Assembly: GCA_018817315.1 (NCBI GenBank)
Contig: JAHITV010000018.1
Span: forward strand, 12,012 to 76,011
DNA length: 64,000 bases
Direction of reading: 5' to 3'
Source of the DNA: Patescibacteria group bacterium
Lineage (GTDB): Bacteria > Patescibacteriota > Patescibacteriia > UBA1558 > UBA10009
Under the pieces are notes generated by a model, which searched no databases, was not told the origin of the DNA, and saw nothing but the letters and a program-made list of their open reading frames with translations. Made by a program: the position numbers and the translations under genes. Within the stretch, counting starts at the first letter, position 1, and the number at the start of each line of letters is the position of its first letter. This document shows, one piece after another, positions 37,321-54,525 of the stretch.

Positions 37321-37324
37321 ATTT

Positions 37325-37573
37325 ATGGACAAAATAGCTAAAGCTTTAAAACTTTTAAATCAGAGAGAAAAAAATACTGTCGCTGATATCTTAACTTCGC
37401 TTGAGAATCGGCTTTTTAAAAATTTAGACATCAAAAAACTTAAAGGCCATGATGATATTTTTAGGGCGCGAAAAGGAAAAATAAGGATTATCTACCGTTT
37501 AGTTAAAGGCAATATTATGATTTTAGCTATTGAGCGAAGGTCAGAAAATACGTATAAGAAGTTTAAAAAATAG
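37325..37573 (+). CDS. RelE/ParE-family type II toxin
   Basis: 82 aa. 'RARKGKIRIIYRLVKGNIMILAIERRSENTYKKF' fits RelE/ParE. Confidence 0.6.
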   Translation: MDKIAKALKLLNQREKNTVADILTSLENRLFKNLDIKKLKGHDDIFRARKGKIRIIYRLVKGNIMILAIERRSENTYKKFKK

Positions 37574-37578
37574 TTTGT

Positions 37579-38799: not shown

Positions 38800-38802
38800 T
38801 AT

Positions 38803-40338
38803 ATGTCAAATATTGAATTATTACATCAAGAAACGTCTGTAAGTCCATTTACTTTAGGGGTTTACTATCGTGGTTTTCATCAAACCAAAAAAAATCATAA
38901 ATATCTTAAACCATTATATTTTAAGAATTCTTTTGTGGTTTTTAAAGGTGACAAAGTTGATTGGTACGGCGATATGGATAATTTTAAAGAGATGGCTGAT
39001 AAGATTATTAATGATGTTAAAAAAGATCCAAAATACAGTCAACGTTTATTAACTGATGTAAATAAACTTACTCAAAAGATTTTCAATGAAGGTAAAATTA
39101 TTCTTAAGTTAAATTTAAGGAAGTTGTCTAGTCAAACAATTGCTAGTCATTTAAATAAAATGTACCAGCTGGGTCAGGATATTAGTGATTTGGGCATGGT
39201 AGCGGTAATTCCAGATTTAAGACATAGTAAATTAACTACTTTATTAAAAGATATTATTAAGCAGAGAATTCAGCGGTTTAAGATAAAAAAACAGATTAAT
39301 TATTATTTTACCCCTTTAATTACTCCCACTGGAAGAGGTTTAGTGCATCAAGAGAAATTAGTAATTTTAAAATTAGTAAAAAAAGTTTCTCAAAATAAAG
39401 AATTAAATCAATTATTCAAAAAATATACACCGGATTATATTAATAATTTTTTGAAAAATAAATTCCCTGTAATTTTTAAGGAGATAGAAAATATTCATCA
39501 TAATTATAAATGGCTTTATTTTGGCCAGTTAGGCCCAGCTAAGTCTTTTACTCAATATCTTGAAGATATTAAGGTATATCTTCAAGATAAAAAGTTTAAG
39601 CAGGAATACAGCTCTTTAATCAAAGAAGGTAAAAATCTAAAAAGGTTACATAATCAGTACACCAAAGAGCTGCATCTTAACAATGTTGAAGAAAAATTAT
39701 TCATGGCTGCCAGAGATTTTAGCTATAATAAAACCTGCCGTTTTGACGCTCTTCTTTTTGACTATTATGTTTTAGATCAGTTATTAAAAGAAATCTCTAA
39801 AAGAAGCGGCTGGATAGTAAAAGATTTACGTTATATGTCAGTTGAGGAGATTATTAAGTTATTACAAAACAAAAAATGTCTCAAAAATAAAGAAATTAAA
39901 ACAAGAGAAAGGTTTTGTATCACTATTATAAGAGGTAAAAGAATACATTTTTTAACTGGCGTAAAAGCCAAAAATTACTTAAAACAAAAAGTAAAGAATT
40001 TAAAAGTAGAAGAGGATAAAACCATAATTCATGGCATGAGCGCTTTTTTGGGAAAAGTCAGCGGTACAGTAAAAATTGTTAATTCGCCCAAAGACATTAT
40101 TAAGATCAAAACAGGTGATGTTTTAGTTTCGGTACAAACCAATCCTGATTTATTGCCAGCCATGAAAAAAGCGGCTGCCTTTGTGACTGATATTGGCGGA
40201 ATTACTTCGCATGCTGCTATTGTCGCCAGAGAAATGAAAAAACCTTGCATTGTAGGTACAAAAGTCGCTACTACGATTTTTAAAGACGGAGATAAAATAG
40301 AAGTTGATGCTGTAAAAGGAGATGTTAAAAAAATTTAA
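38803..40338 (+). CDS. PEP-utilizing swivel-domain protein, array paralog 3
   Basis: 'TDIGGITSHAAIVAREMKKPCIVGT' at the C-terminus. Confidence 0.7.
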   Translation: MSNIELLHQETSVSPFTLGVYYRGFHQTKKNHKYLKPLYFKNSFVVFKGDKVDWYGDMDNFKEMADKIINDVKKDPKYSQRLLTDVNKLTQKIFNEGKIILKLNLRKLSSQTIASHLNKMYQLGQDISDLGMVAVIPDLRHSKLTTLLKDIIKQRIQRFKIKKQINYYFTPLITPTGRGLVHQEKLVILKLVKKVSQNKELNQLFKKYTPDYINNFLKNKFPVIFKEIENIHHNYKWLYFGQLGPAKSFTQYLEDIKVYLQDKKFKQEYSSLIKEGKNLKRLHNQYTKELHLNNVEEKLFMAARDFSYNKTCRFDALLFDYYVLDQLLKEISKRSGWIVKDLRYMSVEEIIKLLQNKKCLKNKEIKTRERFCITIIRGKRIHFLTGVKAKNYLKQKVKNLKVEEDKTIIHGMSAFLGKVSGTVKIVNSPKDIIKIKTGDVLVSVQTNPDLLPAMKKAAAFVTDIGGITSHAAIVAREMKKPCIVGTKVATTIFKDGDKIEVDAVKGDVKKI

Positions 40339-40341
40339 TTT

Positions 40342-41877
40342 ATGAAGGATTATTACACTTTAAAAAATATCAAAAAAGTAAAGTGGGGGGTTTTGGAAGA
40401 AAACCAGCCAATTAGCTTGTATCCTATTATGTATCCTGGTTGGTGCGGGATTATAAAAGGAACAGGCAGGATTTTAGGTAAGATTCAAAGAAGTATAATT
40501 TGCGTACATCAAAAACTCCATGGTTTTATTTTTATAAATCATAAAGAATGGACAGTCCTTGGTCAATATGCTTTAAAAAAAATTTTAAAAAATTCCTCAT
40601 GGGGCTACAATTTAAATAAAAAGATTCTTAAATACGCAGACGAGTTGATTGATTTTACCCATCATCAGATTTTTAAAGTAAATTTAAAAACAAAAACCAA
40701 AAATCAGCTTTATAAATTGTATAAAGAATACGATACTCGCCACAGCAGATTATACAACCAGGCTATTGTGCCGGTGTATCTGGATTTATACAAACCGCAT
40801 TTAACTTTTTATTTAACTGAATATTTACATCAACAGGTTAAAAAAGTTAAATACAGCAAAACTGCCAAAGAGTGTTTTGCTCTTTTAACAGTGCCGGAAA
40901 AGTTATCCAAAGTCCAATTAGCAGAGAAAGACTTATTGAATTTAGCTTTTAAAATAAAAAAAAGTTTAAGAGGCAGATTATTCAGTAAAAAAAGTGTTTC
41001 TAAAGATTCAGGAAAAAAAATTAATCAGCATATAGAAAAATTCAGGTATCAAGGATATAACTTTGAAGGGCCGGCTTTCCATGATAGTTATTTTGAGAAA
41101 AGATTAAAAGAAATGATAGAAGATAAAATTAGTCCAGCCATTAAACTTAAAGAAATTATTAAAGAAAAGAAGCAAGCCCAAAAAATCCATCAACAGTTAA
41201 TAAAAGATTTAAAAATAGATTATCAACATCACAAACTTCTAGAAATCACCCAAGGTTTTATTTATTCCAAAGACTACCGAAAGATGAGTTTAGTACAGTC
41301 ATATTATGAATTAGAGCCATTACTTAAAGAGATTGGAAGGAGATTGAAGTTAAGTTTGCCAGAAATCAGAAATTGTTTGTTAACAGAGATTAAATTAATG
41401 ACCGAAGGCAATCTTGCTAAACCAAAAGATTTAAATAAAAGAATGAAGGGTTGTTTATTTGTGGTCATAGACAGAAAATTACCAGGCAAAGTGTTGGTTG
41501 ATTCAAGGTATGTAGAAATGAGGAAATACCTCCTTAAAAAAGAAGATTTAACTCAAGTTAATTATTTTCATGGTCAAGCCGCTTGTTTAGGCAAGGCAGA
41601 AGGAACAGTTAAAATAATTAATACCATCAAAGATCTGCCTAAAATGAAAAAAGGCAATATCATGATTTCCCAGATGACCAACCCAGATTTAGTACCAGCC
41701 ATGAAAAAAGCTAAAGCCATAGTTACTGATTTAGGCGGTGTCACCTGTCATGCTGCTATAGTCTCCAGAGAATTAAGAATACCTTGTGTTATTGGAACTA
41801 AAATTGCGACTAAGGTGTTAAGAGATGGTGATAGGGTAGTGGTGGATGCTAATCAAGGTGATGTTAAGAAAACATAG
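40342..41877 (+). CDS. PEP-utilizing swivel-domain protein, array paralog 4
   Basis: 'TDLGGVTCHAAIVSRELRIPCVIGT' at the C-terminus. Confidence 0.7.
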   Translation: MKDYYTLKNIKKVKWGVLEENQPISLYPIMYPGWCGIIKGTGRILGKIQRSIICVHQKLHGFIFINHKEWTVLGQYALKKILKNSSWGYNLNKKILKYADELIDFTHHQIFKVNLKTKTKNQLYKLYKEYDTRHSRLYNQAIVPVYLDLYKPHLTFYLTEYLHQQVKKVKYSKTAKECFALLTVPEKLSKVQLAEKDLLNLAFKIKKSLRGRLFSKKSVSKDSGKKINQHIEKFRYQGYNFEGPAFHDSYFEKRLKEMIEDKISPAIKLKEIIKEKKQAQKIHQQLIKDLKIDYQHHKLLEITQGFIYSKDYRKMSLVQSYYELEPLLKEIGRRLKLSLPEIRNCLLTEIKLMTEGNLAKPKDLNKRMKGCLFVVIDRKLPGKVLVDSRYVEMRKYLLKKEDLTQVNYFHGQAACLGKAEGTVKIINTIKDLPKMKKGNIMISQMTNPDLVPAMKKAKAIVTDLGGVTCHAAIVSRELRIPCVIGTKIATKVLRDGDRVVVDANQGDVKKT

Positions 41878-41895
41878 TAAATTATTTATAATCTT

Positions 41896-43503
41896 ATGAA
41901 GTATTTAAAAGATGGTGATCCTTGGTATTTAGCTGAAGATATTCCGGACATGGATTTATTTTTTTCAGAAATTTGGCTTTCCTGTTTTGTTAATGAATTT
42001 AAAAATCCTACTGGCCGGGCGTATAAAAAAATTCTGACGCTTTTTAAGGGTTATCATTTATGGTTTTATTTTGGTGAAAATGATTCCAATTTAGAGGGCG
42101 AACATATCGTTAATAAGTTTATTAAGAACCCAAACTTTGCCAAAAAAGTAAATAAACAAACTATCATTGAAGCGGATAAATTAAGAAAGTTCGCCGAAAA
42201 ATTGCCAGAGGAAAACTTGCAAAAGTTATCCCAAAAACAACTTTGGGAATATTACGCCAATCATGACAAGATCCATACTCATTATTACCAATGGGTTTGG
42301 ATTCCGGTTGGCGCTGATATGTTCCATAATAATTTAACAGAAAGATTAAAACAATATTTAAGAAGTCTTAAGGTAACAGAAGATAAGATTAATGAGTATC
42401 TAGTCGTTTTAACCCAGCCAATGAAAAAATCTTTGATCCAGATTGAAACAGAGGAGTTTTTAAAGATAGCAGATTCAATCCAAAAAGATAAATATTATCA
42501 TAAATTATTTAAGGATTTATACAGAATTTTTGAAGAGCAGGAAGTGACTCCTTATGGCTTGGCTACCCATACACCAGAGTACGAACGATTATTGGAAAAG
42601 AAAATGGATGATCTCAAGGATAAAATCAAAAAGCCGTTGTTGCAAAAAATTTACAATCATTACCAAAAGTATTATTACGTCAAATTCATGTGGATTGGCA
42701 AAGAAGGCGTTAACAGTTTTGATTATTATCTTAAAGAGTTGGTTAAGATTGTTGGCCGGGAACAGAACGCCAAGAAGTTATTGACCGAAAAACAGAAAGA
42801 GCTGCAGCAGATTCTAAAGCAAAGAAAGAAACTGATAAAAAGATTACCAATCACCGGCAAATGGAAAGTATTGTTTGATAATTTTGGTGATTTTATGGTA
42901 ACTAAAATTTATCGGCGCTACGCCCAGATTTATGCTGTTTATCGGATGCAGCCAATTCTCAAGGAAATTGCTAAACGTCTTAAAATCAGCCTTTTTCAAG
43001 TAAGGTTTATGTTGCCTTCAGAGATTGCTAAAGCTTTATTAAAAGGAAAAATCAACCGTCAGGAATTAAAACAGCGCACCCATTTTTGCGTTCATTATAC
43101 AGAAAAAAATTATGAAAAAGTTTTTGTGGGTCAAGAGGCAAAAAAGATGGCTACCTTGATAAAAGCAAAATCTTTGGCTAAGGTAGAAGAGATTAAAGGT
43201 CAAACCGGTTGTATAGGAAAAGCTACGGGCGTTGTTAAAATTATTTTTCGGCCTAAAGATATGGTTAAAATGAATAAAGGCGATGTTTTAGTTTCTATTG
43301 CCACTGATCCTGATATTGTGCCAGCCATGAAAAAAGCAGCAGCCATTGTCACTGAACAGGGCGGTGTTACTTCCCATGCGGCGATTGTCAGCCGAGAACT
43401 AAAAATTCCTTGTGTGATCGGGACTAGAGTTGCAACCAGATTATTAAAGGACGGTGATAAGGTTGAGGTTGATGCTACCAAAGGAATTGTTAAGAGAATA
43501 TAA
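41896..43503 (+). CDS. PEP-utilizing swivel-domain protein, array paralog 5
   Basis: 'TEQGGVTSHAAIVSRELKIPCVIGT' at the C-terminus. Confidence 0.7.
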   Translation: MKYLKDGDPWYLAEDIPDMDLFFSEIWLSCFVNEFKNPTGRAYKKILTLFKGYHLWFYFGENDSNLEGEHIVNKFIKNPNFAKKVNKQTIIEADKLRKFAEKLPEENLQKLSQKQLWEYYANHDKIHTHYYQWVWIPVGADMFHNNLTERLKQYLRSLKVTEDKINEYLVVLTQPMKKSLIQIETEEFLKIADSIQKDKYYHKLFKDLYRIFEEQEVTPYGLATHTPEYERLLEKKMDDLKDKIKKPLLQKIYNHYQKYYYVKFMWIGKEGVNSFDYYLKELVKIVGREQNAKKLLTEKQKELQQILKQRKKLIKRLPITGKWKVLFDNFGDFMVTKIYRRYAQIYAVYRMQPILKEIAKRLKISLFQVRFMLPSEIAKALLKGKINRQELKQRTHFCVHYTEKNYEKVFVGQEAKKMATLIKAKSLAKVEEIKGQTGCIGKATGVVKIIFRPKDMVKMNKGDVLVSIATDPDIVPAMKKAAAIVTEQGGVTSHAAIVSRELKIPCVIGTRVATRLLKDGDKVEVDATKGIVKRI

Positions 43504-43611
43504 TATGATTTTATCCCGCTATTGCTTCGCTCATCAGGATGCTCGATTTTGTTGCGAAATCAAAGATTTCGACAAAATCGGCAAAATAATTAAATAATTA
43601 ACCAAAATATT

Positions 43612-44556
43612 ATGATTAAATTTAGAGAGGTGCCAGAAGCACCAAAAGAGTCAAAGGAGGCAAAAGAAAGACTAGAAACAAAAGTAGTTTTAAATTTTTT
43701 ACGTCATGAAGATAAAGAAAAACCTATAGAAGGGCAGTCAAGTGATGAAGTTGAATTGACTGAAGCAGGCAGGCAAGCTGCCATTGACAAAGGAAGGGAG
43801 GAGGGGAAAGAAGGTCATCCAGAAGTGGGTTTTGCTGTAGCCAGTCCTAAACCCAGAGCACAACACACTGCTCTTCTTAGATTGATGTCCGCCAGTAAAG
43901 AAGAATTAACTGATGAAATGGATTTTGAAGAAGCAAAAGCTTTAGTTAATAAGGAATTAGGATTTGGCACAAAAGTAACTCATTTACCAGAATTAGATTT
44001 TCATTTTGTGAATGAATTTAAAAAAAGATTTTTAAAAGCTTATGCCGAAGAAGGCCGGGGTTTAGAGTTTCTTTTACATGAGAGTGATGAGCTAGGTATT
44101 GAGTTAGGTGATAAAGAAAGCTGGTCTTATTCTAAAATGGCAGCTAACATTGCTTCTTTAATTGCCAGAGAAATGATGGTCGGTAATAGTTTTAATCGTA
44201 TTGCCTCAAAAGAGCCGAATAAATATAAAAAATATGATAATCATATAGAAAGATATCTGGGTACCCATCAAACTGTTACTGAATGTTTTTATATGAAAGT
44301 TTTGGAAAAATTACATGGTCGTGAAAAAGCTGAAGAATTTATAGAAATCTTTAGAGATAAGGAGGGTAAAGCTAACGGTTTTGATTTTCAGGGCGGCTTT
44401 AAAGTGGAAATTGTTAATGGTCCTCAAGGTCAAGAAGTTATTTTAGAAGGTGTTCAAGGTTTTGATGATATAGAATTAACTCCCGAGTTACTTAGCGGGA
44501 TAATTAGCGATGCCGAGGAATTAGACAAAAAAATTCCAGAAACACTCCAAACTTAA
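43612..44556 (+). CDS. Histidine-phosphatase-superfamily-like protein (PGM branch), paralog A
   Basis: 'FLRHEDKE' (RHG-like), 'LTEAGRQAAIDKG' (LTxxGxxQA) and 'VASPKPRAQHTA' (SPLxRAxxTA) occur in order. A later 'THQT' is a possible second His. Confidence 0.45.
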   Translation: MIKFREVPEAPKESKEAKERLETKVVLNFLRHEDKEKPIEGQSSDEVELTEAGRQAAIDKGREEGKEGHPEVGFAVASPKPRAQHTALLRLMSASKEELTDEMDFEEAKALVNKELGFGTKVTHLPELDFHFVNEFKKRFLKAYAEEGRGLEFLLHESDELGIELGDKESWSYSKMAANIASLIAREMMVGNSFNRIASKEPNKYKKYDNHIERYLGTHQTVTECFYMKVLEKLHGREKAEEFIEIFRDKEGKANGFDFQGGFKVEIVNGPQGQEVILEGVQGFDDIELTPELLSGIISDAEELDKKIPETLQT

Positions 44557-44562
44557 AATAAT

Positions 44563-46023
44563 ATGTCTAAAGAAAATCCTAACAGAAAAAAATGGCTATG
44601 GGAATGGGAAAGGCAAATTAGTTGTTTGATTGCTTATCAATTGGCTAAAACATACACCAAGGACAAAGCCTGGCCTTGGTTAAGAATGCCGGTTTTGTTT
44701 GCTGCCAGAGGCAAAGAAGTTAATTTATATTTTTCTGTTAAAGTAATTAATAAAAGTAGATTATTGGCTAAAAAAATTCAACAAAGCCGTAAATTTATCA
44801 TTGATTATAAAAAAGAAATACAACAGGAGGAAAAATTATTAGCTAAATACTGCCAGGAATTAAAACAAAAGTCTATCAGAGATTTAACCACTAGAAAAAT
44901 AATTAATCTTTTGCAAAAGTTTGGCGAACTATATCGTCAGCACGGCGTTACTCCCATAAGAACGCTTAATCGAATAGGACCAGGAATTGTCAGGAAGTTT
45001 TTTCTGCAAAAATACCAGGAAAAAGAGACTGATAAATGGTTGCCTATTTTATTTGCAGCTACCAGGCAAAGCGTTGATCGTCGGCAAGAAAAGGATATAT
45101 TGATGTTGGCAGGCAAAATCAGCACCCTTAAGAAATTGGCTGATAAAAAAACAGCCATTTTAATTTTTAGTTATTTAGACAAATATCAGTGGTTACCCTG
45201 CGGTTATGCTGAAGAATTGCCATTGCAAAAAAAGGATATAATTAAAAAGTTACAGCAAATTTTAAAAGAAAAGCAGTCACCTGTAATAAAACTCCGTCAA
45301 TTAATTAAAGAAGAAAAAGCTCTTTATCAAAAAAGAAAAAAATTATTAGCAAAACTTAACCTGCCAAGCTATATTGCCAATTTAGTAGAAGCACTTAGTG
45401 AATTTATTTTTTATAAGGATTTTATCAGGATGAATTATAATAAATTACATTTTTATAGTCGTCCGCTTTTTAAAGAAGCAGCTAAGAGATTGCAAGTTTC
45501 TTTAAAGGAATTGACTTATTTCACAGTTTCAGAGATCATTCAATTTTTACAAAGAGGCAAAATAGATAAAAGACTGCTTTTAGCCCGCCTTAGGAATTAT
45601 CTTTGCTATACTAAAGGAAAAGAAATTGAAATTTTAGTAGGTCAAAAAGCCAAAATAAAGGAACAGCAGGAAATTGAAGAGAGAGATAAACAAATAGCTC
45701 AACATTTAATTAAGGGCATTGGTGCTTCAGCAGGATATGCCAAAGGTTCCGTTAAAGTTATCAAACATTTTGTTACAACAGAAAAGATTCCCGCAAATTT
45801 TATTTTAGTTACTCCCATGACAACACCTGAACTAGTTCCTATTGCTAAAAAAGCTTTAGCTATTATTACTGACGAAGGCGGCATTACTTGTCATGCGGCT
45901 ATTGTCAGCCGTGAACTAAAAATACCTTGCGTGATTGGTACAAAAATCGCCACTAAAATTTTTAAAGACGGTGATAAAGTGGAGATTGATGCTAATAAAG
46001 GGATTGTTAAGAAAATCGGTTAG
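44563..46023 (+). CDS. PEP-utilizing swivel-domain protein, array paralog 6
   Basis: 'TDEGGITCHAAIVSRELKIPCVIGT' at the C-terminus. Confidence 0.7.
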   Translation: MSKENPNRKKWLWEWERQISCLIAYQLAKTYTKDKAWPWLRMPVLFAARGKEVNLYFSVKVINKSRLLAKKIQQSRKFIIDYKKEIQQEEKLLAKYCQELKQKSIRDLTTRKIINLLQKFGELYRQHGVTPIRTLNRIGPGIVRKFFLQKYQEKETDKWLPILFAATRQSVDRRQEKDILMLAGKISTLKKLADKKTAILIFSYLDKYQWLPCGYAEELPLQKKDIIKKLQQILKEKQSPVIKLRQLIKEEKALYQKRKKLLAKLNLPSYIANLVEALSEFIFYKDFIRMNYNKLHFYSRPLFKEAAKRLQVSLKELTYFTVSEIIQFLQRGKIDKRLLLARLRNYLCYTKGKEIEILVGQKAKIKEQQEIEERDKQIAQHLIKGIGASAGYAKGSVKVIKHFVTTEKIPANFILVTPMTTPELVPIAKKALAIITDEGGITCHAAIVSRELKIPCVIGTKIATKIFKDGDKVEIDANKGIVKKIG

Positions 46024-46027
46024 AAAT

Positions 46028-47005
46028 ATGAGAAATTTTAAGGAAAAAATCAAAACCTATTTTTTAAATCTTCCAAAAGGAATTTTACCGGTAAGTGTTG
46101 ATCCAGATCTTAAAGTTGAAAAGATTAGTGGCGGTGATTATAATTTGAATTTTAAAATTAATGTCAATGGAGAAAAATTTTTACTGCGACTTAACGTTGA
46201 AGCACAAAGTGGTTTAAAGAATCAAATTATGTATGAGTACAAAACCTTAAAGTTCCTGGAACCGTATAAAATAGCGCCAAAAGCGTATTATTTGGATGAT
46301 TCTAAGAAACATTTCCCCTTTGGTTTGATAATTGAAGAGTTTATAGCGGGAAAACGACTGGAAATTTCTTTGGCTTCGTTAAAAAAGTTAGCAAAAACTT
46401 TGGCTCGTTTGCATACCATTCCTTTAGGGAATAGAAATTTTTTGATAAGGTGGCAAAGCCCTTTAAAGGAACAATTGAAATTTGTAACTAATGAGTTTAA
46501 TCGATACAGGCAGAGAAAAATTATTAACAAAGAGTTTATTAATATTGGTAGTAAAATTATTAACAAAGTAAAAAGCCGGTTTAGAGTGATTGAGAAAAAA
46601 TTAAAACCTACTAGTATTATTCATACTGACTTGGTTGCAAGTAATATTATTGATACCGGCTATCAGGCATATTTAGTTGATTGGGAAAAAGGTCGGATTG
46701 AAGATCCTAGTTATGATATAGCGTTTTTCCTTTGCCCATTGATGAATTTATGGGATTGGCCTAGGATACTTACAGAGAAAGAAAAGGAATATTTTCTAAA
46801 AGTTTATGAAGAGGAAAGCGGAGACAAAGCTATCAGGACAAGAATAAATTACCGAATCCATCTGATTATTTTACATTTAGTATTATGGGCGGGAAACCGC
46901 ATTGCCGATGTTAAAGAGGGTTTAATAAGTAAAGAGTTGGGTAGGCAAAATTATGTCAGGTATAGAAAATTATTTGATCTTAATCAACTAAGAAAATATT
47001 TATAA
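46028..47005 (+). CDS. Protein-kinase-like phosphotransferase (APH/choline-kinase family)
   Basis: The Brenner-type motif 'IIHTDLVASNII' and 'YLVDWEKGRIEDPSYDIAFF' (DxE...D) are present. The start was moved to the internal Met so that it follows the paralog-6 stop. Confidence 0.55.
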   Translation: MRNFKEKIKTYFLNLPKGILPVSVDPDLKVEKISGGDYNLNFKINVNGEKFLLRLNVEAQSGLKNQIMYEYKTLKFLEPYKIAPKAYYLDDSKKHFPFGLIIEEFIAGKRLEISLASLKKLAKTLARLHTIPLGNRNFLIRWQSPLKEQLKFVTNEFNRYRQRKIINKEFINIGSKIINKVKSRFRVIEKKLKPTSIIHTDLVASNIIDTGYQAYLVDWEKGRIEDPSYDIAFFLCPLMNLWDWPRILTEKEKEYFLKVYEEESGDKAIRTRINYRIHLIILHLVLWAGNRIADVKEGLISKELGRQNYVRYRKLFDLNQLRKYL

Positions 47006-47009
47006 AAGT

Positions 47010-47975
47010 ATGGAAAAAATATCGGAATCTCCTTTTGAAAAAAAAGAAAAAGAGCCAAACAAAGTTGCTGCCAGATATTATTTTTTTCGGCATGATGAGC
47101 CAGTTTATTCCGATGAGGTGGCAAAGTTAATGAATAGTCATGGATATGAAGTTGAACATTATTCAGGCGCAGAATTTATAGCGGATCAGGAAGTTCCCGA
47201 AGAACAAGAAGGATTTCATCCGTCGGAGAAACAATTAAAGAAGTTCAAGGGTCGGAGAAGATCAGAAACTTTTGAACCGCGTTATGAAATAGAAGATCGT
47301 GCAAAATTTGAGGCAGTTATAAAAGAACCGTCTAGTAGAGAAAATTTGCAACCATTGGTTGGTATTTTAGAAGATAAAAATGTAGTGCCGTTTATTATTA
47401 CTGGTCCTAGAACTAGGCACGGTTTTTCTGCCCAAAGCATAAATAAGAGTTTAAAGGATCAAGGTATAGAAATTGATCAAAAGAGCGTTATAGTGACTGA
47501 TATGTTAACAGATATGAATAAACATTGGATTTATTTAACAGAAATTGCTGAAGAGAAAGGTTTGAAAAATCCCTGGGATGCCATCAGAAACCCAGCTTAT
47601 AAACAAGCATTAGAAGAGAAAAATATTGAAACAATGGTGGATATTGAAGAAAGAATAAAACATTTTTTACAGGTTTTGGATAGATTGTTCAAAAAGCACA
47701 AAACCAATGATCCTTTGCTTTCTGAAAAATTTCCGGCGGTGATTAGTGTTACTTCCGATTATTCTCAACTTACTCTACTCAAAGCTTTAGGAATTAAGGA
47801 GATAAATGGTGAGCCGATTTTGAAATTTAAACCGGACGTTGGTAGTTATGTTGAAGTGGAGTTAATGGAAAATGGTACTGCCAAAATTTATTATCAAGCT
47901 AGAGATCAGCAAAACCCTCAGTTAGTTGGTGAGGTTGATGATTTTTATGGGAAAATCAAGACCAACAAAGTTTAA
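47010..47975 (+). CDS. Histidine-phosphatase-like protein, paralog B (divergent)
   Basis: It has the same N-terminal layout as 43612 (K/E-rich leader then 'YYFFRHDE'). Other motifs are weaker. Confidence 0.3.
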   Translation: MEKISESPFEKKEKEPNKVAARYYFFRHDEPVYSDEVAKLMNSHGYEVEHYSGAEFIADQEVPEEQEGFHPSEKQLKKFKGRRRSETFEPRYEIEDRAKFEAVIKEPSSRENLQPLVGILEDKNVVPFIITGPRTRHGFSAQSINKSLKDQGIEIDQKSVIVTDMLTDMNKHWIYLTEIAEEKGLKNPWDAIRNPAYKQALEEKNIETMVDIEERIKHFLQVLDRLFKKHKTNDPLLSEKFPAVISVTSDYSQLTLLKALGIKEINGEPILKFKPDVGSYVEVELMENGTAKIYYQARDQQNPQLVGEVDDFYGKIKTNKV

Positions 47976-48129
47976 TAATTTTGGAGAATAAAATAAATAG
48001 TTTATTATGCCTCAAAAAATAAAATGGATAAAATTTTTTAGTCGCGGTAATCATCCTTTATTATTTATAGATTCGGTAACTATTGCTTATCGTGATAAAT
48101 ACGCTAAGTATTTTAATTTACCTTTTTAG

Positions 48130-49329
48130 ATGAAATATTTTCTTCGCCACAGTGGAAGCACCTACTTTGAAGAAAAGGAATTTAACGCTATTTACAAAAT
48201 ACTGCAAAAGCGAATAAATACTTTATGGCCTAAAAAGGTTATTTTAAAAATGAGAAAAGATTTAAAACAGCTGATTAAATATGTAAAAAGTTTAGATGCT
48301 AAAAAGATAAACCGTCAACAGTTGGAAAAATTTTTTGAATTGCTTCATTATGCCTGTCAAAGTATTTATTTTACTGTTTTTATGGCTTGGATAATAGAGG
48401 AAGAGGTTGGTAAGCTTACTTTGAATTTTAGCGCTAAAAAAAGAGATTTAATCCTAAGGCTTTGCCGTTCATTCTATTCGCCGGTTCAGGCACAATATAT
48501 CCAAGCTTTAAAACAATTTAAAAAAAGCGATTCTGAATTAGAAATTAAAAAAATTATCAAAAGATTTGGCTGGATTAAAAATTATTTAATGAATGTAAAA
48601 GAACTAACTGTTGAAGATATTAAAGAGGATTTAAAATCATTAGATAAAAAGCTTAAAGAGAAAGCAAAATTTCCCCGAATTCAACTTAATAGTAAATTAA
48701 AAAGATTGGTGAGTTTAGGTCAGCTTTATTCCCAATTTCGTGATTGGCGGTTGTTTGAGTTGAATAAAGTGTTTTATTACACCAAACCCTTTTTTGAAAG
48801 TTATTTTAAAAATACAGGTCTTAACTATGAACAGTTAATACAATTACGGGTAGCTGAATTTTTAAATAAAAAGTTTGATAAAAAAGCAATAATCAAAAGA
48901 CAAAAAGATCATGGAGTGATAATGCAGAATGGTAAAATTACTGTTATTACCGGCAAAGAACTTGCCAAAATTAAAAAAGAAACTGACAGTCAAATTAGTC
49001 AGCAAAAAGAAATTGTAGGAAAAGTAGCAATGACCGGCAAGGTTAGAGGCAGGGTCAGAATAGTTTTACCTTATAATTTTCATCAATTAAAAAAGGGTGA
49101 GATTGTAGTAACTTCAGAAACAACGCCAGAAGCAGTTTCTTATATACGTAATGTTAAAGCCATTATTACTGATGAGGGTGGTATTACTTCCCATGCTGCT
49201 ATTATTTTCAGAGAGTTAGGAATTCCTTGCGTGATTGGTACTAAAATTGTGACTAAAGTGTTGAAAGATGGTGATAAAGTAGAGGTGGATGCAAATAAAG
49301 GAATGGTTAAAGTTATTAAAAACAATTAA
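48130..49329 (+). CDS. PEP-utilizing swivel-domain protein, array paralog 7 (shortest N-terminal domain)
   Basis: 'TDEGGITSHAAIIFRELGIPCVIGT' at the C-terminus. Confidence 0.7.
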   Translation: MKYFLRHSGSTYFEEKEFNAIYKILQKRINTLWPKKVILKMRKDLKQLIKYVKSLDAKKINRQQLEKFFELLHYACQSIYFTVFMAWIIEEEVGKLTLNFSAKKRDLILRLCRSFYSPVQAQYIQALKQFKKSDSELEIKKIIKRFGWIKNYLMNVKELTVEDIKEDLKSLDKKLKEKAKFPRIQLNSKLKRLVSLGQLYSQFRDWRLFELNKVFYYTKPFFESYFKNTGLNYEQLIQLRVAEFLNKKFDKKAIIKRQKDHGVIMQNGKITVITGKELAKIKKETDSQISQQKEIVGKVAMTGKVRGRVRIVLPYNFHQLKKGEIVVTSETTPEAVSYIRNVKAIITDEGGITSHAAIIFRELGIPCVIGTKIVTKVLKDGDKVEVDANKGMVKVIKNN

Positions 49330-49347
49330 AGTCTTAATTTAATATTT

Positions 49348-50862
49348 ATGGCTTATAAAATTTTTGCCCGCGAAGTGGCTGCTCCTTTTTCTCCTATGCT
49401 TTTTTATTCTTTAGCAGAGATTGACGAAAGAGTTAATAAAATAGCGGGTTTTAAAGCAAAATCATCTTTACAAGAAGTCGTAGAAACAAATATCAGGTGG
49501 TGTTTGGAAGAGCAAAACACTTTAGCTATCCAAAAGAAAGTTTTTAAGAAGCTGGCAAAAAAACAGTTTTACCAAAAGGTGGTAAAAGAAAGTTATTCAA
49601 CCTTGGAAAAATTTAAACAAGCAATTCTTTTAATTAGAAAGCAAAATTTTAAAAAATTTACAGCCGGAGAATTAGCCCAATCTTTAGATAATTTTATAAA
49701 GATTTGGATTAAAGCTACTATTTGGGGACATATTATTAATATGTCTGATTTTCATTTTAATTTGTTGAGCGCTAAGCTTATAAAGTTAATCACAGAAAGG
49801 ATTAAAAAAAATAAAATAAAAGTTTCTACTGCCGAAGTGTTTGCCGTTTTAACTACTCCTCTTAAACGGAGTTTGCTTTTAGAGCAAGATCTAAACATGT
49901 TAAAATTACTAAAAGAGATTCAAAAGAATAAAGATTTAGAAAATTCCTTCAGGCAAAATAAAAATTTAAGAGCTAAATTAGAAAAATCATCTCTTTGGCC
50001 TAAAATCAAAGCTCATACCAAAAAATATGATTGGTTGCAGTATCATTATCTCGGTCCTACCATACTTTCGGTAAATTATTTTATTGAACTTTTACAAGGA
50101 TTAGTTAAGCAGAAAGTAAAAGCAGAAGAGAATTTAAAAGACTTAATGAATAAAGAAAAAGAAACAGAGGAGAAACAAGAAGAATTAAAAGATAAACTGA
50201 AATTCACTTCATCAGAGCTTTACTGGATAGAAATGGCTAAAGAGTTTATTTACTTAAAAGGTTATAGAAAAGATCTCACTTTTATGGCTTGCCGCTCTTA
50301 TGAGGACTTGTTAAAGGAGATGGCTAAAAGGTTTGATATTTCTTTAAAACAATTACAGTTTATGACTTTGGAAGAAATCTTAGATGGTTTAAGAAATAAT
50401 AATTATCCAAACCCGGATTTATTAAATGAACGGTTTAAATATTGCGTTATTTATTATCCTCAAGGCAAGGCAAAAGTGTATGTTGGTAAAAAAGCTAGAA
50501 AAATGGCAGAAAAAATTAAGGAAGAGAAAATTTCAGAAAAATTAAGAGAGTTTAAAGGTACGCCTGCTTTTCCGGGTAAAGCTACAGGTAAGGTAATTAA
50601 AGTATTTAATAGTAAAGATATGTCTAAGATGAAAGAAAAAAGGATTTTAGTTTCTCCTGCCACTAATCCTAATATTATGCCGGCTATTACTAAAGCTGCC
50701 GCTATTATCACTGATGAAGGTGGTATTACCTGTCATGCCGCTATCGTCAGCCGAGAATTAAAAATACCTTGTGTTATTGGCACTAAAATTGCTACACAAG
50801 TTCTTAAAGACGGTGATAAAGTGGAGGTAGATGCGGAGCAGGGTATTGTCAAAATTTTATAA
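49348..50862 (+). CDS. PEP-utilizing swivel-domain protein, array paralog 8
   Basis: 'TDEGGITCHAAIVSRELKIPCVIGT' at the C-terminus. Confidence 0.7.
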   Translation: MAYKIFAREVAAPFSPMLFYSLAEIDERVNKIAGFKAKSSLQEVVETNIRWCLEEQNTLAIQKKVFKKLAKKQFYQKVVKESYSTLEKFKQAILLIRKQNFKKFTAGELAQSLDNFIKIWIKATIWGHIINMSDFHFNLLSAKLIKLITERIKKNKIKVSTAEVFAVLTTPLKRSLLLEQDLNMLKLLKEIQKNKDLENSFRQNKNLRAKLEKSSLWPKIKAHTKKYDWLQYHYLGPTILSVNYFIELLQGLVKQKVKAEENLKDLMNKEKETEEKQEELKDKLKFTSSELYWIEMAKEFIYLKGYRKDLTFMACRSYEDLLKEMAKRFDISLKQLQFMTLEEILDGLRNNNYPNPDLLNERFKYCVIYYPQGKAKVYVGKKARKMAEKIKEEKISEKLREFKGTPAFPGKATGKVIKVFNSKDMSKMKEKRILVSPATNPNIMPAITKAAAIITDEGGITCHAAIVSRELKIPCVIGTKIATQVLKDGDKVEVDAEQGIVKIL

Positions 50863-50866
50863 ATTT

Positions 50867-52336
50867 ATGTCTAAGATTAATTGGATCCAAGTAACCAAAA
50901 GCGGAAAACTTCCTTTATTTTTAATGTGTACTATCCCTTATGCTTATAAGGAAGGATATCTGGGAAAAGTTTTAAAAGCTGATTTTAAAATTCATTATTA
51001 TCGTAGGATTTTAGGAGCATCTTATTTTGCTAAAAAAGAATGGGATGATTATTTAAAATTGATTAAAATTAAAGAGAACAATAATCCAGGTTATTTACTG
51101 AAAATAGGAACAGAGTTTGAAAAAAGAATTAAAGAGATTATTCTTTTCTGTAAAAAATATAATAATCGTGATTTTTCTAAAGTAAAGTTGCAGGAGCTCA
51201 AAAAGATTTATGATCAGTTTATTGATTTAAAAAAACAATGGCTTACTCCTGATTACACTTATTATGTAATAGATCGCTATTTACCAGAAATTCTTACTAT
51301 AGAAATTTCTAAAAAGCTGAAAAATAAAGAAAGGTTTAATGAAATTATTGAAGTCCTTACTAGTCTTGATCGTTCAACCCTGATCAGAGAGGAAAAAGTC
51401 CGGTTATTAAAATTAGCTGATTTAATAAAGAAAAAGAAATTCTCTTTTAAAAGTAAAAAGATCCAGAAACTAATTAAAAATCATATAGAAAAATTCGGTT
51501 TTCTTAATTATTATTTTTATTATTATAAACCTTATACTGCGATTCAGTTAGAAAAAAGAATTAAGGAAATTTTAGGTAAAAATATTAAGGCAGAAATCAA
51601 AAAAGTTGCAGCACAAGAGAAAAACAAAGAATTAACTCAAAAAATAATTCAAGAGCTTAATTTATCTAAAAAAACGCGGCTTATTATTAAAACTTTAAAA
51701 CAATGGGGATATTGTCTTAATTATCTTGATGAAGCTGGTTGTTTGATTAATCATTACTTTAAAAATTTTCTTTTAGAATTAGCTAAAAGGATGAAGATAA
51801 GTTATGCTATGTTAGTGGAGATGAATTTTGAAGAAATTGATGACTTTTTTAAAAAAGGAGAAATTTCTCCTCAACTGAAAATAAAATTAAAAGAAAGGAT
51901 AAAAAGCTGGGGATTGATTTGGAGCGGCGGAAAATTAAATATTTATTCAGGCAAGGAGTTAGCGAAATTGGAAAAAAGCGAAGTAAAGCAAAAAAAAACT
52001 CAAACAAAACAGGTCAAATTAATAAAAGGAGTTAATGCCTCCTCTGGAGTGGTAAAAGGGAAGATTCGGCTTTTGGAAAGTCATTGTGACATTTTTAAGA
52101 TGAAAAAAGGCGAAATTTTAGTAACTTCCAAAACCAATCCTAAATTTGTTCCTGCTATGGAAAAAGCTTTAGCTATTATTACTGATGAAGGCGGTTTACT
52201 TTCTCATGCGGCAGTTGTTTCCCGGGAATTAAAAATTCCTTGCATTACCGGTACTAAAATCGCCACTAAAATGCTCAAAAACGGAGATCAAGTGGAAGTA
52301 GATGCGGATAAGGGTATAGTTAAAAAAATAAAATAA
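50867..52336 (+). CDS. PEP-utilizing swivel-domain protein, array paralog 9
   Basis: 'TDEGGLLSHAAVVSRELKIPCITGT' at the C-terminus. The start is set at the internal Met after the previous gene's stop. Confidence 0.65.
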   Translation: MSKINWIQVTKSGKLPLFLMCTIPYAYKEGYLGKVLKADFKIHYYRRILGASYFAKKEWDDYLKLIKIKENNNPGYLLKIGTEFEKRIKEIILFCKKYNNRDFSKVKLQELKKIYDQFIDLKKQWLTPDYTYYVIDRYLPEILTIEISKKLKNKERFNEIIEVLTSLDRSTLIREEKVRLLKLADLIKKKKFSFKSKKIQKLIKNHIEKFGFLNYYFYYYKPYTAIQLEKRIKEILGKNIKAEIKKVAAQEKNKELTQKIIQELNLSKKTRLIIKTLKQWGYCLNYLDEAGCLINHYFKNFLLELAKRMKISYAMLVEMNFEEIDDFFKKGEISPQLKIKLKERIKSWGLIWSGGKLNIYSGKELAKLEKSEVKQKKTQTKQVKLIKGVNASSGVVKGKIRLLESHCDIFKMKKGEILVTSKTNPKFVPAMEKALAIITDEGGLLSHAAVVSRELKIPCITGTKIATKMLKNGDQVEVDADKGIVKKIK

Positions 52337-52338
52337 TT

Positions 52339-53745
52339 ATGTGGATAAAAAAATATACTCGTCCATCAAATGTTCAATATGATGAGCTGATCAGGGGCAG
52401 TGGTTTATTTCAGATACCTCTTCTTGTTTCAGTGATTAAGAGTTGTTTGGGTTTTCCGGTTGGCAAAGGTTTTTTGGAATTTTATATTCAAGAAAATGAA
52501 TGGGATAATCTAATGGAAAAAATGTCTAAGAAGATGTTGCGAGGACGGAATTTTTATCAAAGGTATGTTCAAGATTATCGCCAAGTTAGCAAACAATATT
52601 ATAAATCAGCTTTGCCTTTTAAAAAAGACTTAACCAAATTATCTAACAGGCAATTATTTAATCTTTATCAAAATTTTGTTAAATCAACTAGAGCAATGTG
52701 CTGGTTTTTTTATTCGGTTTGGGCAATTAATGAAGTCATTGAACCGGCATTCAAGAAAAAGATAATTAAAAAGTTTGGCGCTAAAGCTAAAAAGATTCTT
52801 TTAGCCATTAATTCCTTAACCCAAACCATCAGATTTGATCAACAACTAAAAGAGCTGTTAATTCTTAAAGATAAGGGCAATATTAATCAAAAAACATTAC
52901 AGGCCCATGTTCAGAAATGGGGTTATTTAAAAGTCTACGCGCCTCATCATCAACCTTTCAAAAGCGCTGATTTTCTTAAGATGATTAAAGGTGTTAAACC
53001 AAAAAAGCAACTCAAGGAAATAATAAAAGGATTAAAAGAAAATCAGAAGCAATATCAACAAGCTTTACAATTATTAAAGATCAATGAGGGATTATTTAAT
53101 CTAGCGCGCCTGATAAATTTGAATATTTATTTAAGAAACGAAAGGATGGATTTATATCGTGAAGTGACGATGTTAGTCAAGCCCTTTTATCAGGAATTAG
53201 ATCGGCGTTTGGGTTTGGCCAATTACCAGTCATCCTTTTTAACCATTGATGAGATAAATCAATTTCTGTTAAAAAATAAAAAACCAAATTTTCGTGAAAT
53301 TAAAGAGCGCGCTAAAATAAAATATGCCTGGTATTGTCAAGGTAAAACCAGAAGGTTAATTTTAAATCAAGCTGAAATCAAAAAATTATATAAAAAGAAA
53401 CTTGGTTCAAAGGAAAAATATTACGAATTAAACGGCATGGTTGCTTATCCGGCCGGTAAAGTTAGAGGCAGAGTCAGGATTGTTATTTCGGTCCATGATG
53501 AATTAAAATTTTGTCCCAAAGAAATTTTGGTTACTCCCATGACTCGTCCTGAATACACTAATATTATGAAAAAAGCTGCGGCTATAGTGACTGATGAGGG
53601 TGGCGTGACCTGTCATGCCGCAGTTCTTTCTCGCGAGTTAAAAATACCTTGTGTGATTGGCACAAAAATCGCCACCAAAGTTCTTAAAGATGGTGATATG
53701 GTAGAAGTTGATGCCAATAAGGGAATTATTAAAAAGTTAAAGTAG
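52339..53745 (+). CDS. PEP-utilizing swivel-domain protein, array paralog 10
   Basis: 'TDEGGVTCHAAVLSRELKIPCVIGT' at the C-terminus. Confidence 0.7.
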   Translation: MWIKKYTRPSNVQYDELIRGSGLFQIPLLVSVIKSCLGFPVGKGFLEFYIQENEWDNLMEKMSKKMLRGRNFYQRYVQDYRQVSKQYYKSALPFKKDLTKLSNRQLFNLYQNFVKSTRAMCWFFYSVWAINEVIEPAFKKKIIKKFGAKAKKILLAINSLTQTIRFDQQLKELLILKDKGNINQKTLQAHVQKWGYLKVYAPHHQPFKSADFLKMIKGVKPKKQLKEIIKGLKENQKQYQQALQLLKINEGLFNLARLINLNIYLRNERMDLYREVTMLVKPFYQELDRRLGLANYQSSFLTIDEINQFLLKNKKPNFREIKERAKIKYAWYCQGKTRRLILNQAEIKKLYKKKLGSKEKYYELNGMVAYPAGKVRGRVRIVISVHDELKFCPKEILVTPMTRPEYTNIMKKAAAIVTDEGGVTCHAAVLSRELKIPCVIGTKIATKVLKDGDMVEVDANKGIIKKLK

Positions 53746-53758
53746 TATAAGTATAATC

Positions 53759-53907
53759 TAAGCTTTGGTCGCTTACTTTGTCATTCTGAATCCCGTCAAG
53801 TCAGAGCTGGCGGGATGAAGAATCTAATAGGTACATAATTTTAAAAGATTCTTTCGTCGCTCAGTCTGACTGAACTCCTCAGAATGACAATGTGCGACCA
53901 AAGCTTA
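53759..53907. repeat. Long composite palindromic element: outer arms taagctttggtcgc..tgtcattctga / tcagaatgacaatgtgcgaccaaagctta, enclosing about 90 nt with two inner hairpins
   Basis: Read directly. A compact copy of the same element lies at 54468-54508. Confidence 0.6.
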
Positions 53908-53951
53908 TCGATTAATTAAATAATAACCAAGAGAGGTAGATTAAAGATTTT

Positions 53952-54452: not shown

Positions 54453-54467
54453 TAACATAGATACTAT

Positions 54468-54508: not shown

Positions 54509-54525
54509 ATTATTAATCAATTGAA

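Follow-up and report, generated by a model that had tools for sequence, protein, structure and literature searches.

The 64,000-nt stretch of DNA analyzed here (the window) belongs to a member of the Patescibacteria in the candidate-phyla-radiation. Three of its genes, named P1 (43612–44556, 314 aa), the kinase (46028–47005) and P3 (47010–47975, 321 aa), are nested among ten genes for swivel-domain proteins, all on the + strand, with intergenic gaps of 6, 4, and 4 nt around them. A preliminary description had placed the P1 and P3 ORFs at exactly these coordinates, and its family calls (two proteins of the histidine-phosphatase (HP) fold, one APH/choline-kinase (ChoK) enzyme, and one HAD-family hydrolase) agree with our HMM and Foldseek searches. 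P1, the kinase, and P3 are real genes, which fall into two separately conserved modules, A (with P1) and B (with the kinase and P3). The account below is built on what was observed of fold, family assignment, residue conservation, gene order, and linkage.

The swivel array and its presumed ATP-grasp partner

Swivel paralogs 1–5 are located at 35465–37021, 37579–38799, 38803–40338, 40342–41877, and 41896–43503, paralog 6 (44563–46023) sits between P1 and the kinase, and paralogs 7–10 occupy 48130–49329, 49348–50862, 50831–52336, and 52339–53745. They were identified by PF00391 or by a swivel HMM derived from the window. PF00391 matched the three scanned members of paralogs 1–5 (the first, second, and fifth) with E-values of 1e-23 to 1e-26, paralog 6 with 3.1e-24, and paralog 7 with 9.8e-25; the window-derived HMM detected paralogs 3 (E 4e-48) and 4 (E 2e-51), both included in our alignment A4, as well as all of paralogs 7–10. 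As annotated for paralog 6, a helical N-domain precedes a C-terminal PEP-utilizers phospho-His domain. Every one of the ten paralogs in A4 retains the catalytic His, and the mean pairwise identity is 56% in the swivel region and around 20% in the N-domains.

A stand-alone ATP-grasp (PPDK_N) subunit is encoded at 55813–56793 on the + strand (PF01326, 9.4e-94). In rifampin phosphotransferase (RPH), it matches the ATP-grasp domain end to end (5hv6, 3.3e-60; residues 1–316 of 5fbs) and covers positions 1–313 of the 864-position NCBIfam rph profile (1.9e-80). We presume that all ten swivel paralogs share it as their ATP-binding partner. Since tRNA genes part it from the array, the whole system need not be co-transcribed. 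The profile of A4 matches RPH over residues 579–875 of 5hv2 (E 5.4e-29); by this profile comparison, the swivel paralogs correspond to the part of RPH that comprises the rifampin-binding and swivel domains, as in HpeHI, CreHI, and PpsAB. The ATP-grasp, helical substrate-binding, and His swivel parts of RPH (PDB 5hv1, 5fbs; PMC4844700) are thus all significantly matched in the window. RPH, however, is a single chain of about 865 aa and the window version is split; the detectable similarity of the swivel paralogs to the RIF-binding domain is confined to roughly its last 190 residues; and RPH has no known HP partner, unlike the P1-linked system of the window.

The same division of labor is found in HpeHI, CreHI, and the phenylphosphate synthase PpsAB, characterized two-component dikinases with exactly this split (PMC12167813). 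Like the window, they have a separate RPH-like ATP-grasp subunit and a partner that joins an RPH-like substrate-binding domain to a C-terminal swivel bearing the catalytic His. They differ in that the window holds ten partner paralogs per ATP-grasp gene (1–7 in the other loci), which are 399–535 aa long compared with about 640 aa. Furthermore, no carboxylase or oxidase genes lie beside the window array, and its host is a reduced-genome member of the Patescibacteria, not an aromatic degrader, with a predicted dikinase system.

P1 and its linkage to swivel genes

The motifs proposed for P1 are present as described: RHE at 31, LTEAGRQAA at 49, SPKPRAQHTA at 78, and THQ at 218. With PF00300, the profile suggested as a check, P1 scores 15.8 bits (E 0.011), under the cut-off of 21.7, and other evidence establishes its HP fold. 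The AlphaFold model (pLDDT 90.1, pTM 0.90) was compared with the PDB by Foldseek, where 50/50 of the best matches listed belong to the HP superfamily (best E 1.4e-6), and around 28 proteins of the P1 family have precomputed PF00300 matches. R31, H32, S78, R82, S158, D159, R214, H219, and E224 are invariant among 22 family sequences reaching down to 29% identity, so that P1 carries a full catalytic set; S158 and D159 lie in an inserted helical cap some 75 residues long. P1 shares the fold and the RH..R..H core of branch 1 of the superfamily (PF00300: dPGM, PhoE, CobC, GpgP, TIGAR), and differs from branch 1 and from the branch 2 acid phosphatases in its score under the Pfam cut-off, its long insertions, and an ExE leader that is conserved at the N-terminus and disordered in the model.

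A P1-family gene directly adjoins a swivel (PF00391) gene in all 20 non-redundant Patescibacteria loci, drawn from several lineages, and an ATP-grasp (PPDK_N) gene, stand-alone or fused, lies within the fetched flank in 12 of the 20. The minimal operons read swivel-P1-PPDK_N (L025), swivel-P1 (L031), and P1-swivel (L008). P1 is usually present in one copy per array, as is the ATP-grasp gene, and the carriers number from one to ten. Among 89 P1-family members, none carries a swivel or ATP-grasp domain in the same polypeptide. L029 has, directly downstream of PPDK_N and swivel genes, a gene that joins a P1-family domain to an N-formylglutamate-amidohydrolase (PF05013) domain, an arrangement that may be taken as a hint of small-molecule chemistry for the family.

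These data bear on whether P1 acts on a protein, as a phosphohistidine phosphatase or phospho-acceptor similar to SixA that would discharge the swivel His and so reset or regulate all ten carriers. SixA, an HP-superfamily enzyme sharing the RH nucleophile motif with P1, dephosphorylates phospho-His on the carrier protein NPr and has Ndk and PfkA as further targets (PMC7948535, PMC12934123, PMC11974560); the phospho-His carriers on which it works belong to a PEP-dependent phosphorelay in which Enzyme I has a PF00391 swivel domain. A single P1 for many carriers would suit such a role, the swivel is the conserved element common to them, and the conserved disordered leader could serve as a docking peptide. 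The best PDB match of the P1-family profile is the SixA-sized Alr0221 (3f2i, E 7.9e-5), but it covers the N-terminal 67 residues only, a region common to all HP enzymes and the extent of the likeness to SixA itself. SixA has about 160 residues and no cap, whereas the 314-residue P1 has a large cap with invariant residues, as is typical of small-molecule HP enzymes. The amidohydrolase fusion points to metabolite chemistry, and constitutive discharge of the carriers would amount to a futile ATPase. We consider this role for P1 rather unlikely.

The kinase and P3

The kinase start in the ORF list was a TTG at 45935, which overlaps the upstream gene; the ATG at 46028 lies 4 nt past the upstream stop and yields 325 aa, the length of the homologs, and is therefore the likely start on this sequence comparison. 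Numbered from this ATG, the proposed motifs appear as HTDLVASN (the Brenner motif, HxDxxxxN) at 199 and DWE (DxE) at 218. The protein exceeds both Pfam cut-offs for the APH/choline-kinase family (PF01636, 1.6e-17 and 64.5 bits; PF01633, 2.4e-14). No NCBIfam equivalog was found for it, the best model, GntI, giving 49 bits where 357 are required.

In the PDB, spectinomycin phosphotransferase (3i0o, 1.8e-5) matches the kinase best, with hygromycin and macrolide phosphotransferases also among its closest relatives there. Together with the closeness of the swivel paralogs and ATP-grasp subunit to RPH, and with the counting of rph-like genes in CPR resistome surveys (PMC8651080), this could suggest a battery of RPH-like modules and an APH-type kinase for inactivating xenobiotics or antibiotics, with the HP and HAD genes as incidental neighbors. 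The unbroken P1-swivel linkage is not incidental, however, the similarity to resistance enzymes is at the family level with NCBIfam scores far under equivalog cut-offs, a phosphatase would undo the inactivation, and PADLOC returned no matches. Such a battery is highly improbable.

An APH kinase lies directly upstream of P3 in the window and in five other loci (the P0025 contig, L009, L026, L027, and L028), the two genes being joined by a start/stop overlap or a 4-nt gap, the latter in the window. In L026–L028, the flanks retrieved around the pair (up to 10 kb; for L026, about 1.2 kb on the downstream side) contain no swivel gene. A conserved pairing of an APH/choline-kinase-family gene with an HP-fold gene is undescribed, as far as we searched.

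For P3, the preliminary description was accurate for RHD at 27; LTxxGxxQA is absent, and GPRTRHGFSA at 132 replaces SPxxRAxxTA. PF00300 finds no match, and the HP fold is established from other evidence: a model with pLDDT 90.5, 50/50 HP-superfamily proteins among the best Foldseek PDB matches listed (best E 5.8e-5), and the relatives P0033 and P0035, which exceed the PF00300 cut-off. Besides lacking a Pfam match, P3 is set apart from the superfamily by long insertions and by an ExE leader conserved at its N-terminus. The family alignment shows no variation at R134, R136, and D250 and next to none at R27 and the nucleophile H28. P3 has TSD at 248 where relatives carry THD, which places Ser249 at the expected second catalytic His, a mapping based on motif and secondary-structure position and not on residue-level structural superposition. 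Like the branch 2 acid phosphatases, the P3 family has an HD-like Asp; Asp250 occupies what we take to be the position of the proton donor in the HD motif of those enzymes. P3 itself has Ser for the second His.

The Ser is shared by the window P3 and 8 of 12 aligned family members, which form the P3 clade, whereas the four distant members have His. This substitution suggests altered or weakened catalysis, and P3 may lack phosphatase activity altogether. As a pseudo-phosphatase, it would bind phosphate or another ligand as a partner or regulator of the adjacent kinase; the strict pairing would fit a complex, and HP-fold pseudoenzymes are known (8gdl, a flea acid-phosphatase pseudoenzyme, is among the fold matches of P1). 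The retention of Arg27, His28, Arg134, Arg136, and Asp250 is hard to explain without catalysis or phosphate binding, and we regard such a pseudo-phosphatase as unlikely.

P1 and P3 had been called paralogs, for which we find no support at the sequence level (BLASTP E 1.2). With shallow profiles, hhalign gave a probability of 0.4%; with deeper profiles, it reached 50–65% over 37–130 columns (E 6.3e-5 at 65%). An ExE leader 12–15 residues ahead of the RH motif is common to both. On these comparisons, they appear to be deeply diverged superfamily members, not paralogs in any useful sense.

The HAD-superfamily hydrolase (54526–55143, + strand) was confirmed by PF13419 (8.4e-14) and PF00702 (1.1e-13), and against NCBIfam it stays under all cut-offs except that of a generic HAD-IA model. 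Its motif I reads FDCYG, that is DxY and not DxD, so phosphatase activity is not assured. The gene occurs in only two P1 loci, and one also lies inside the L004 array.

Proposed transient phosphorylation and the two modules

The proposal of a phosphorylate/dephosphorylate cycle has precedent in two-component dikinase pathways, but one cycle common to all genes is not indicated, because P1 is tied to swivel and ATP-grasp genes and the kinase-P3 pair also occurs without a nearby swivel. In such a cycle, P1 and P3 as paralogous phosphatases, the kinase, and the HAD protein would act on one small molecule in integration with the phospho-carriers. Tight packing on the same strand, the similar size and fold of P1 and P3 together with their weak profile similarity and common leader, and, on the closest relative contig, a kinase followed by P3 and next by an HP-like gene would agree with it. 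Against it stand the failure of BLASTP to relate P1 and P3, the different linkage rules, and the finding that the window is the only one of the 20 P1 loci with the kinase and P3, and that the HAD gene is in two of them. We consider a single cycle very unlikely.

Our preferred reading, to which we assign a probability of roughly 45%, is a split small-molecule dikinase array of the RPH/HpeHI type that holds P1 as its phosphatase, with an autonomous kinase-P3 pair inserted. From the observations above, we infer which way the phosphate flows, that the substrates are small molecules, and that P1 and P3 act as hydrolases. The ATP-grasp subunit would transfer ATP's beta-phosphate to the invariant His of each swivel paralog, which would hand it to a small molecule held by its own divergent helical N-domain. 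P1, the usually single-copy and constantly linked third gene of the dikinase system, would most likely strip the phosphate from the phosphorylated product or products, giving transient phosphorylation as in the Hpe/Cre pathways. In the Hpe pathway, the HpeHI kinase is followed by a carboxylase and then by the cluster-encoded phosphatase HpeD, which removes the phosphate (PMC9618137, PMC12167813); HpeD is a NagD-like HAD enzyme, whereas the constantly linked putative phosphatase of the window has the HP fold.

Several observations weigh against this array with P1 as phosphatase. No modifying enzyme (carboxylase or oxidase) is encoded that would act after phosphorylation and before dephosphorylation, so a plain phosphorylate-then-dephosphorylate sequence would waste ATP. 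One P1 would serve up to ten paralogs with conserved swivels and divergent N-domains, and action on the common element, the phospho-swivel, therefore fits at least as well. P1 is also under the Pfam cut-off, and P3 is without the second catalytic His.

Within the preferred reading, module B would be an autonomous, tightly coupled two-gene unit whose most likely role is to phosphorylate a different small molecule and then to dephosphorylate or bind it. Collectively, judged from its linkage across Patescibacteria loci, P1 proves to be a constant, previously undescribed partner of these predicted split, ATP-driven phosphorylating (dikinase) systems.

Gene layout and split dikinase architecture

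The window is chromosomal, on a contig of a metagenome-assembled Patescibacteria (CPR) genome, with KKF32_02070 and KKF32_02085 as exact protein matches, and the neighbors of the array include genes for class II ribonucleotide reductase, LeuRS, EF-P, SSB, and S6. Every gene from 35465 to 56793 lies on the + strand. Five swivel paralogs, from a set of ten PF00391 phospho-histidine carrier genes, are followed by the gene of protein P1 (43612–44556), swivel paralog 6 (44563–46023, + strand), an APH-type kinase gene (46028–47005), the gene of protein P3 (47010–47975), and four more swivel paralogs. Then come a 166-aa open reading frame (ORF), a HAD-family gene (54526–55143, + strand), three tRNA-like genes, and a stand-alone PPDK_N ATP-grasp gene (55813–56793, + strand). 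The P1 and P3 ORFs are both present where the preliminary description placed them, and the genes from P1 to P3 are separated by only 6 nt (P1/swivel 6), 4 nt (swivel 6/kinase), and 4 nt (kinase/P3).

The ten swivel paralogs carry an invariant histidine in a conserved C-terminal domain, with a mean pairwise identity of 56% in this domain and 20% in the N-domains. Their alignment profile (A4) aligns to residues 579–875 of the rifampin phosphotransferase (RPH) chain 5hv2 with an E-value of 5.4e-29, spanning the swivel domain and ~190 residues of the rifampin-binding domain; for the N-terminal ~200 residues of the paralogs, no RPH match was detectable. The PPDK_N protein matches PF01326 (9.4e-94), and its residues 4–326 align to RPH 1–316 (~1e-60), covering the ATP-grasp domain end to end. 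In the known two-component dikinases HpeHI, CreHI, and PpsAB, one subunit binds ATP and the other bears the substrate site and the swivel histidine (PMC12167813). The window array is split in the same way, into a stand-alone ATP-grasp protein and an RPH-like/swivel partner. As read from sequence, the array is a predicted split dikinase of the RPH/HpeHI type.

The tRNA-like genes (55313–55589), called as tRNA-Ile(GAT), tRNA-Val(GAC), and a 94-nt ARAGORN call with an undetermined four-base anticodon (ggca), lie between the HAD and PPDK_N genes, setting the ATP-grasp gene apart from the swivel genes. A 557-nt gap (37022–37578) lies between swivel paralogs 1 and 2, neighboring genes being otherwise 3–18 nt apart, and the N-terminus of paralog 2 is ~100 residues shorter. 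Six-frame translation of the intergenic gaps, in which swivel and N-domain remnants were sought, returned only the end of the upstream gene, and no N-domain remnant was detected within 37022–37578. The ORFs of paralogs 8 and 9, as listed, overlap by 32 nt (50831–50862); paralog 9 may in fact start at a downstream ATG (MSKINW...). The 166-aa ORF (53952–54452), which follows the last swivel paralog and precedes the HAD gene, has a hydrophobic N-terminal segment and no Pfam or NCBIfam match. Upstream of the array (19014–30455), one gene encodes a protein of 2770 aa that includes a carbohydrate-binding module and another a 1042-aa protein without Pfam match; downstream (58101–63768) lies a cluster resembling type IV secretion genes (PrgI, TraG-like ATPase, T4SS pilin). 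A promoter and terminator scan of 35000–54999 gave counts equal to the shuffled expectation, and the PADLOC defence models matched none of six proteins (P1, kinase, P3, swivel paralog 5, PPDK_N, and HAD).

Histidine phosphatase-fold proteins, the kinase, and the HAD protein

The motifs described earlier for P1 were confirmed as RHE (31), LTEAGRQAA (49), and SPKPRAQHTA (78), and a THQ motif (218) was found in addition. In the suggested check against PF00300, P1 itself falls short, scoring 15.8 bits against a gathering cut-off of 21.7. Some P1 relatives do reach this family: the match is precomputed on ~28 of 89 family members, and a fusion protein of locus L029 scores 39.4 bits. P1 has 23 close homologs, whose source labels, where given, are Patescibacteria/Uhrbacteria or 'bacterium'; a few of the 89 members found by profile search already bear the name 'histidine phosphatase family protein'. 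When the PDB was searched directly by sequence, neither P1 nor P3 gave a match at E-values up to 10.

The AlphaFold model of P1 (pLDDT 90.1, pTM 0.90) has the strand order of histidine phosphatases (HPs), with a helical insertion (134–206) between core strands as a cap. The best 50 Foldseek matches listed from the PDB all belong to the HP superfamily with a probability of 1.00, at TM-scores of just 0.35–0.56. Across 22 sequences, down to 29% identity, R31, H32, S78, R82, K121, S158, D159, R214, H219, E224, and K229 are invariant. Strand 23–31 ends at R31-H32, forming the RH nucleophile motif; R82 (SPxxR) is the second arginine, and H219 (GTHQ), after strand 211–218, is the second histidine. 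Since these four residues are invariant, the predicted catalytic R-H-R-H core is complete, and the presence of S158 and D159 among the invariant positions indicates that the cap supplies invariant residues. By its residues and predicted fold, P1 is an HP-superfamily protein with a complete catalytic core. P1 differs in build from SixA-type phosphohistidine phosphatases, which have a small, capless HP domain of ~160 aa whose active site is open to protein substrates: P1 is 314 aa long, with helices 134–206 inserted between core strands.

P3 retains less of the proposed motif set. RHD (27) is present, LTxxGxxQA is absent, and GPRTRHGFSA (132) stands in place of SPxxRAxxTA; no Pfam match at all was obtained, including PF00300, though its relatives P0033 (41.6 bits) and P0035 (22.2 bits) exceed the PF00300 cut-off. 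The family is rare: there is one close homolog, and an exhaustive HMMER search over 1.8 billion representatives gave 13 matches. The P3 model has a pLDDT of 90.5, and the best 50 Foldseek matches listed are HP enzymes only. In 12 aligned family sequences, R134, R136, and D250 never vary, while R27 and H28 are nearly invariant; the RH motif and second arginine are thus present, and the model together with the PF00300 matches of relatives places P3 in the HP fold. P3 reads TSD (248) where relatives read THD: position 249 is serine in P3 and most aligned members, and histidine in four distant relatives (P0032, P0033, P0035, and P0037). The correspondence of S249 to the second histidine was drawn by motif and strand position in the model, not by superposition; an hhalign comparison of A3 and A7 with an E. 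coli GpmA sequence gave an unreliable global alignment and was set aside. Because of Ser249, P3 may be a weakened or non-catalytic HP member.

The earlier view of P1 and P3 as paralogs did not hold at the sequence level, where the BLASTP E-value is 1.2 and the shallow hhalign probability 0.4%. Deeper profiles raise the probability to 50–65%, a weak similarity, and the N-terminal leaders of both families share an ExE motif 12–15 residues before RH. P1 and P3 could thus represent two distantly related sister lineages of the HP superfamily. The leaders of P1 (43612–43680, consensus YREVPxAPExKEGE) and P3 (47010–47090) are conserved yet modeled at low confidence (pLDDT 39–69), and this conserved segment could be a docking peptide.

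The kinase bears the APH/ChoK motifs ascribed to it, HTDLVASN at 199 (Brenner HxDxxxxN) and DWE at 218 (the metal-binding DxE), and scores above cut-off for both PF01636 (64.5 bits) and PF01633 (53.8 bits). Its sequence identifies 46028–47005 as an APH/choline-kinase family member, which fits no defined substrate subfamily (choline, thiamine, aminoglycoside, macrolide, and others), every NCBIfam equivalog score being far below cut-off. PF13419 matches the HAD protein at 52.5 bits. The preliminary description had named a lack of significant HMM matches as counting against its assignments; taken literally, half of this was found (PF00300 for P1 and P3) and half was not (PF01636 and PF13419 both matched). 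Motif I of the HAD protein is FDCYG, a DxY as in haloacid dehalogenases, where typical HAD phosphatases have DxD with the second aspartate as general acid/base. This aspartate is missing from some HAD phosphatases too, so the protein may still have phosphatase activity. Among full-length NCBIfam matches, haloacid dehalogenase type II ranks best but scores well under its cut-off, and a HAD gene within an Uhrbacteria array (L004, 4034–4621) has FDTGG as motif I.

Gene neighborhoods in related loci

Related loci were found by exact-protein look-ups and pattern scans, with the P1-family pattern derived from alignment A5, and were annotated with Pfam and with HMMs made from proteins of the window; several contigs are short. 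In all 20 non-redundant loci retrieved, the P1-family gene directly adjoins a swivel gene on the same strand, under the lineage labels Uhrbacteria, Doudnabacteria, Saccharibacteria, Paceibacterota, Falkowbacteria, Parcubacteria, and Azambacteria. PPDK_N, stand-alone or fused to swivel domains, lies within the fetched flank in 12 of the 20, and the HAD gene occurs in 2 only. The minimal forms are swivel-P1-PPDK_N (L025), swivel-P1 (L031), and P1-swivel (L008). No fusion of P1 to a swivel or ATP-grasp domain was seen among the 89 family members. In L029 (Azambacteria), the gene at 1642–3564, which immediately follows PPDK_N and a short swivel gene, encodes a 640-aa fusion of a P1-family HP (PF00300, 6.8e-10) and an N-formylglutamate amidohydrolase (PF05013, 2.3e-30).

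A second, stand-alone P1 gene of L029 lies 4.4 kb downstream of the fusion, behind an AbiEii gene. Giant fusions of PPDK_N with one or several swivel domains were observed at L018 4309–9936 (1875 aa), L022 4523–7897 (1124 aa), and L030 1692–5045 (1117 aa), the first two on contigs labeled Saccharibacteria and Paceibacterota; the P1-family gene follows directly (L018) or behind one or two more swivel genes (L022 and L030). Toxin-antitoxin-like genes (Phd/YefM, PIN, AbiEii) are located between swivel genes in L006 (7804–8404 and 12572–13241) and L029 (6604–7869). Between P1 and PPDK_N of L002 (11033–14283) lie a flavokinase fragment, riboflavin synthase, lumazine synthase, and a methyltransferase, and these riboflavin-related genes may hint at the substrate or lie there by coincidence. 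A typical array with six swivel genes, P1, and PPDK_N occurs in L020 (CAZHTA010000004.1, labeled 'uncultured Gammaproteobacteria'), which may reflect mis-binning or horizontal transfer.

Of the 20 P1 loci, only the window contains the kinase and P3. An APH-type kinase followed by P3 is also found in the closest relative contig, in L009, and in three metagenome contigs (L026–L028), where the kinase gene overlaps the start of P3 and its product barely aligns with the window kinase (BLASTP E-values 0.007–0.04). The flanking sequence retrieved around these three pairs (at most 10 kb; ~1.2 kb on the downstream side in L026) contains no swivel gene. In L010, a P3-like gene of more distant kinship adjoins a swivel gene and a PfkB kinase.

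Proposed phosphate transfer and its significance

From the folds, residues, and gene linkage, which are the directly shown part, we infer the following mechanism, to which as a whole we give a probability of roughly 0.45. The ATP-grasp subunit would charge the swivel histidine of each paralog, and each paralog would then phosphorylate a small molecule held by its own N-domain. P1, as a capped and catalytically complete HP, would later strip the phosphate from the small molecule, as HpeD takes phosphate off in the Hpe pathway (PMC9618137). The kinase and P3 would form a separate kinase-HP unit inserted into the swivel array.

The main rival places P1 on the phospho-swivel histidine, in the way that SixA acts on NPr (PMC7948535). 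Such a target would account for one P1 serving many carriers that have only the swivel domain in common, but the large cap with its invariant residues and the amidohydrolase fusion in L029 both count against it, and we consider it unlikely. In another and rather improbable proposal, the P1 family would be dedicated to a three-part phosphorelay as its discharging or accepting enzyme: one ATP-grasp 'charger' would phosphorylate up to ten paralogous carrier/substrate-binding proteins on their swivel histidine, and the HP enzyme would then draw the phosphate off this histidine for resetting, proofreading, or routing. In the searches made, the system of ATP-grasp protein, carriers, and P1 was found almost only in Patescibacteria-labeled contigs. 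If true, a histidine phosphatase would be seen for the first time as the partner of a PEP-utilizer swivel domain, and bacteria of minimal metabolism would possess a multi-substrate phosphotransfer network of a new kind.

The enzyme superfamilies and split dikinases are already known; with enzymes from such well-known superfamilies, the novelty lies in arrangement and linkage, not in chemistry. The literature searched, of incomplete coverage that does not prove absence, held nothing on this system in CPR/Patescibacteria, and described neither a multi-paralog array with one common ATP-grasp gene, nor a constant HP-fold partner of a swivel array, nor a conserved kinase-P3 pair. Two HP lineages carried as 'hypothetical protein' in standard annotation are now delimited, as is the conserved pair of kinase and HP-fold genes. 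A tiny Patescibacteria genome devotes ~20 kb to ten paralogs of one enzyme subunit and accessory genes, and related arrays recur in Uhrbacteria, Doudnabacteria, Saccharibacteria, Falkowbacteria, Paceibacterota, and others. Together, the ATP-grasp protein, the carrier, and P1 offer a concrete, testable three-protein system for learning what these organisms phosphorylate.
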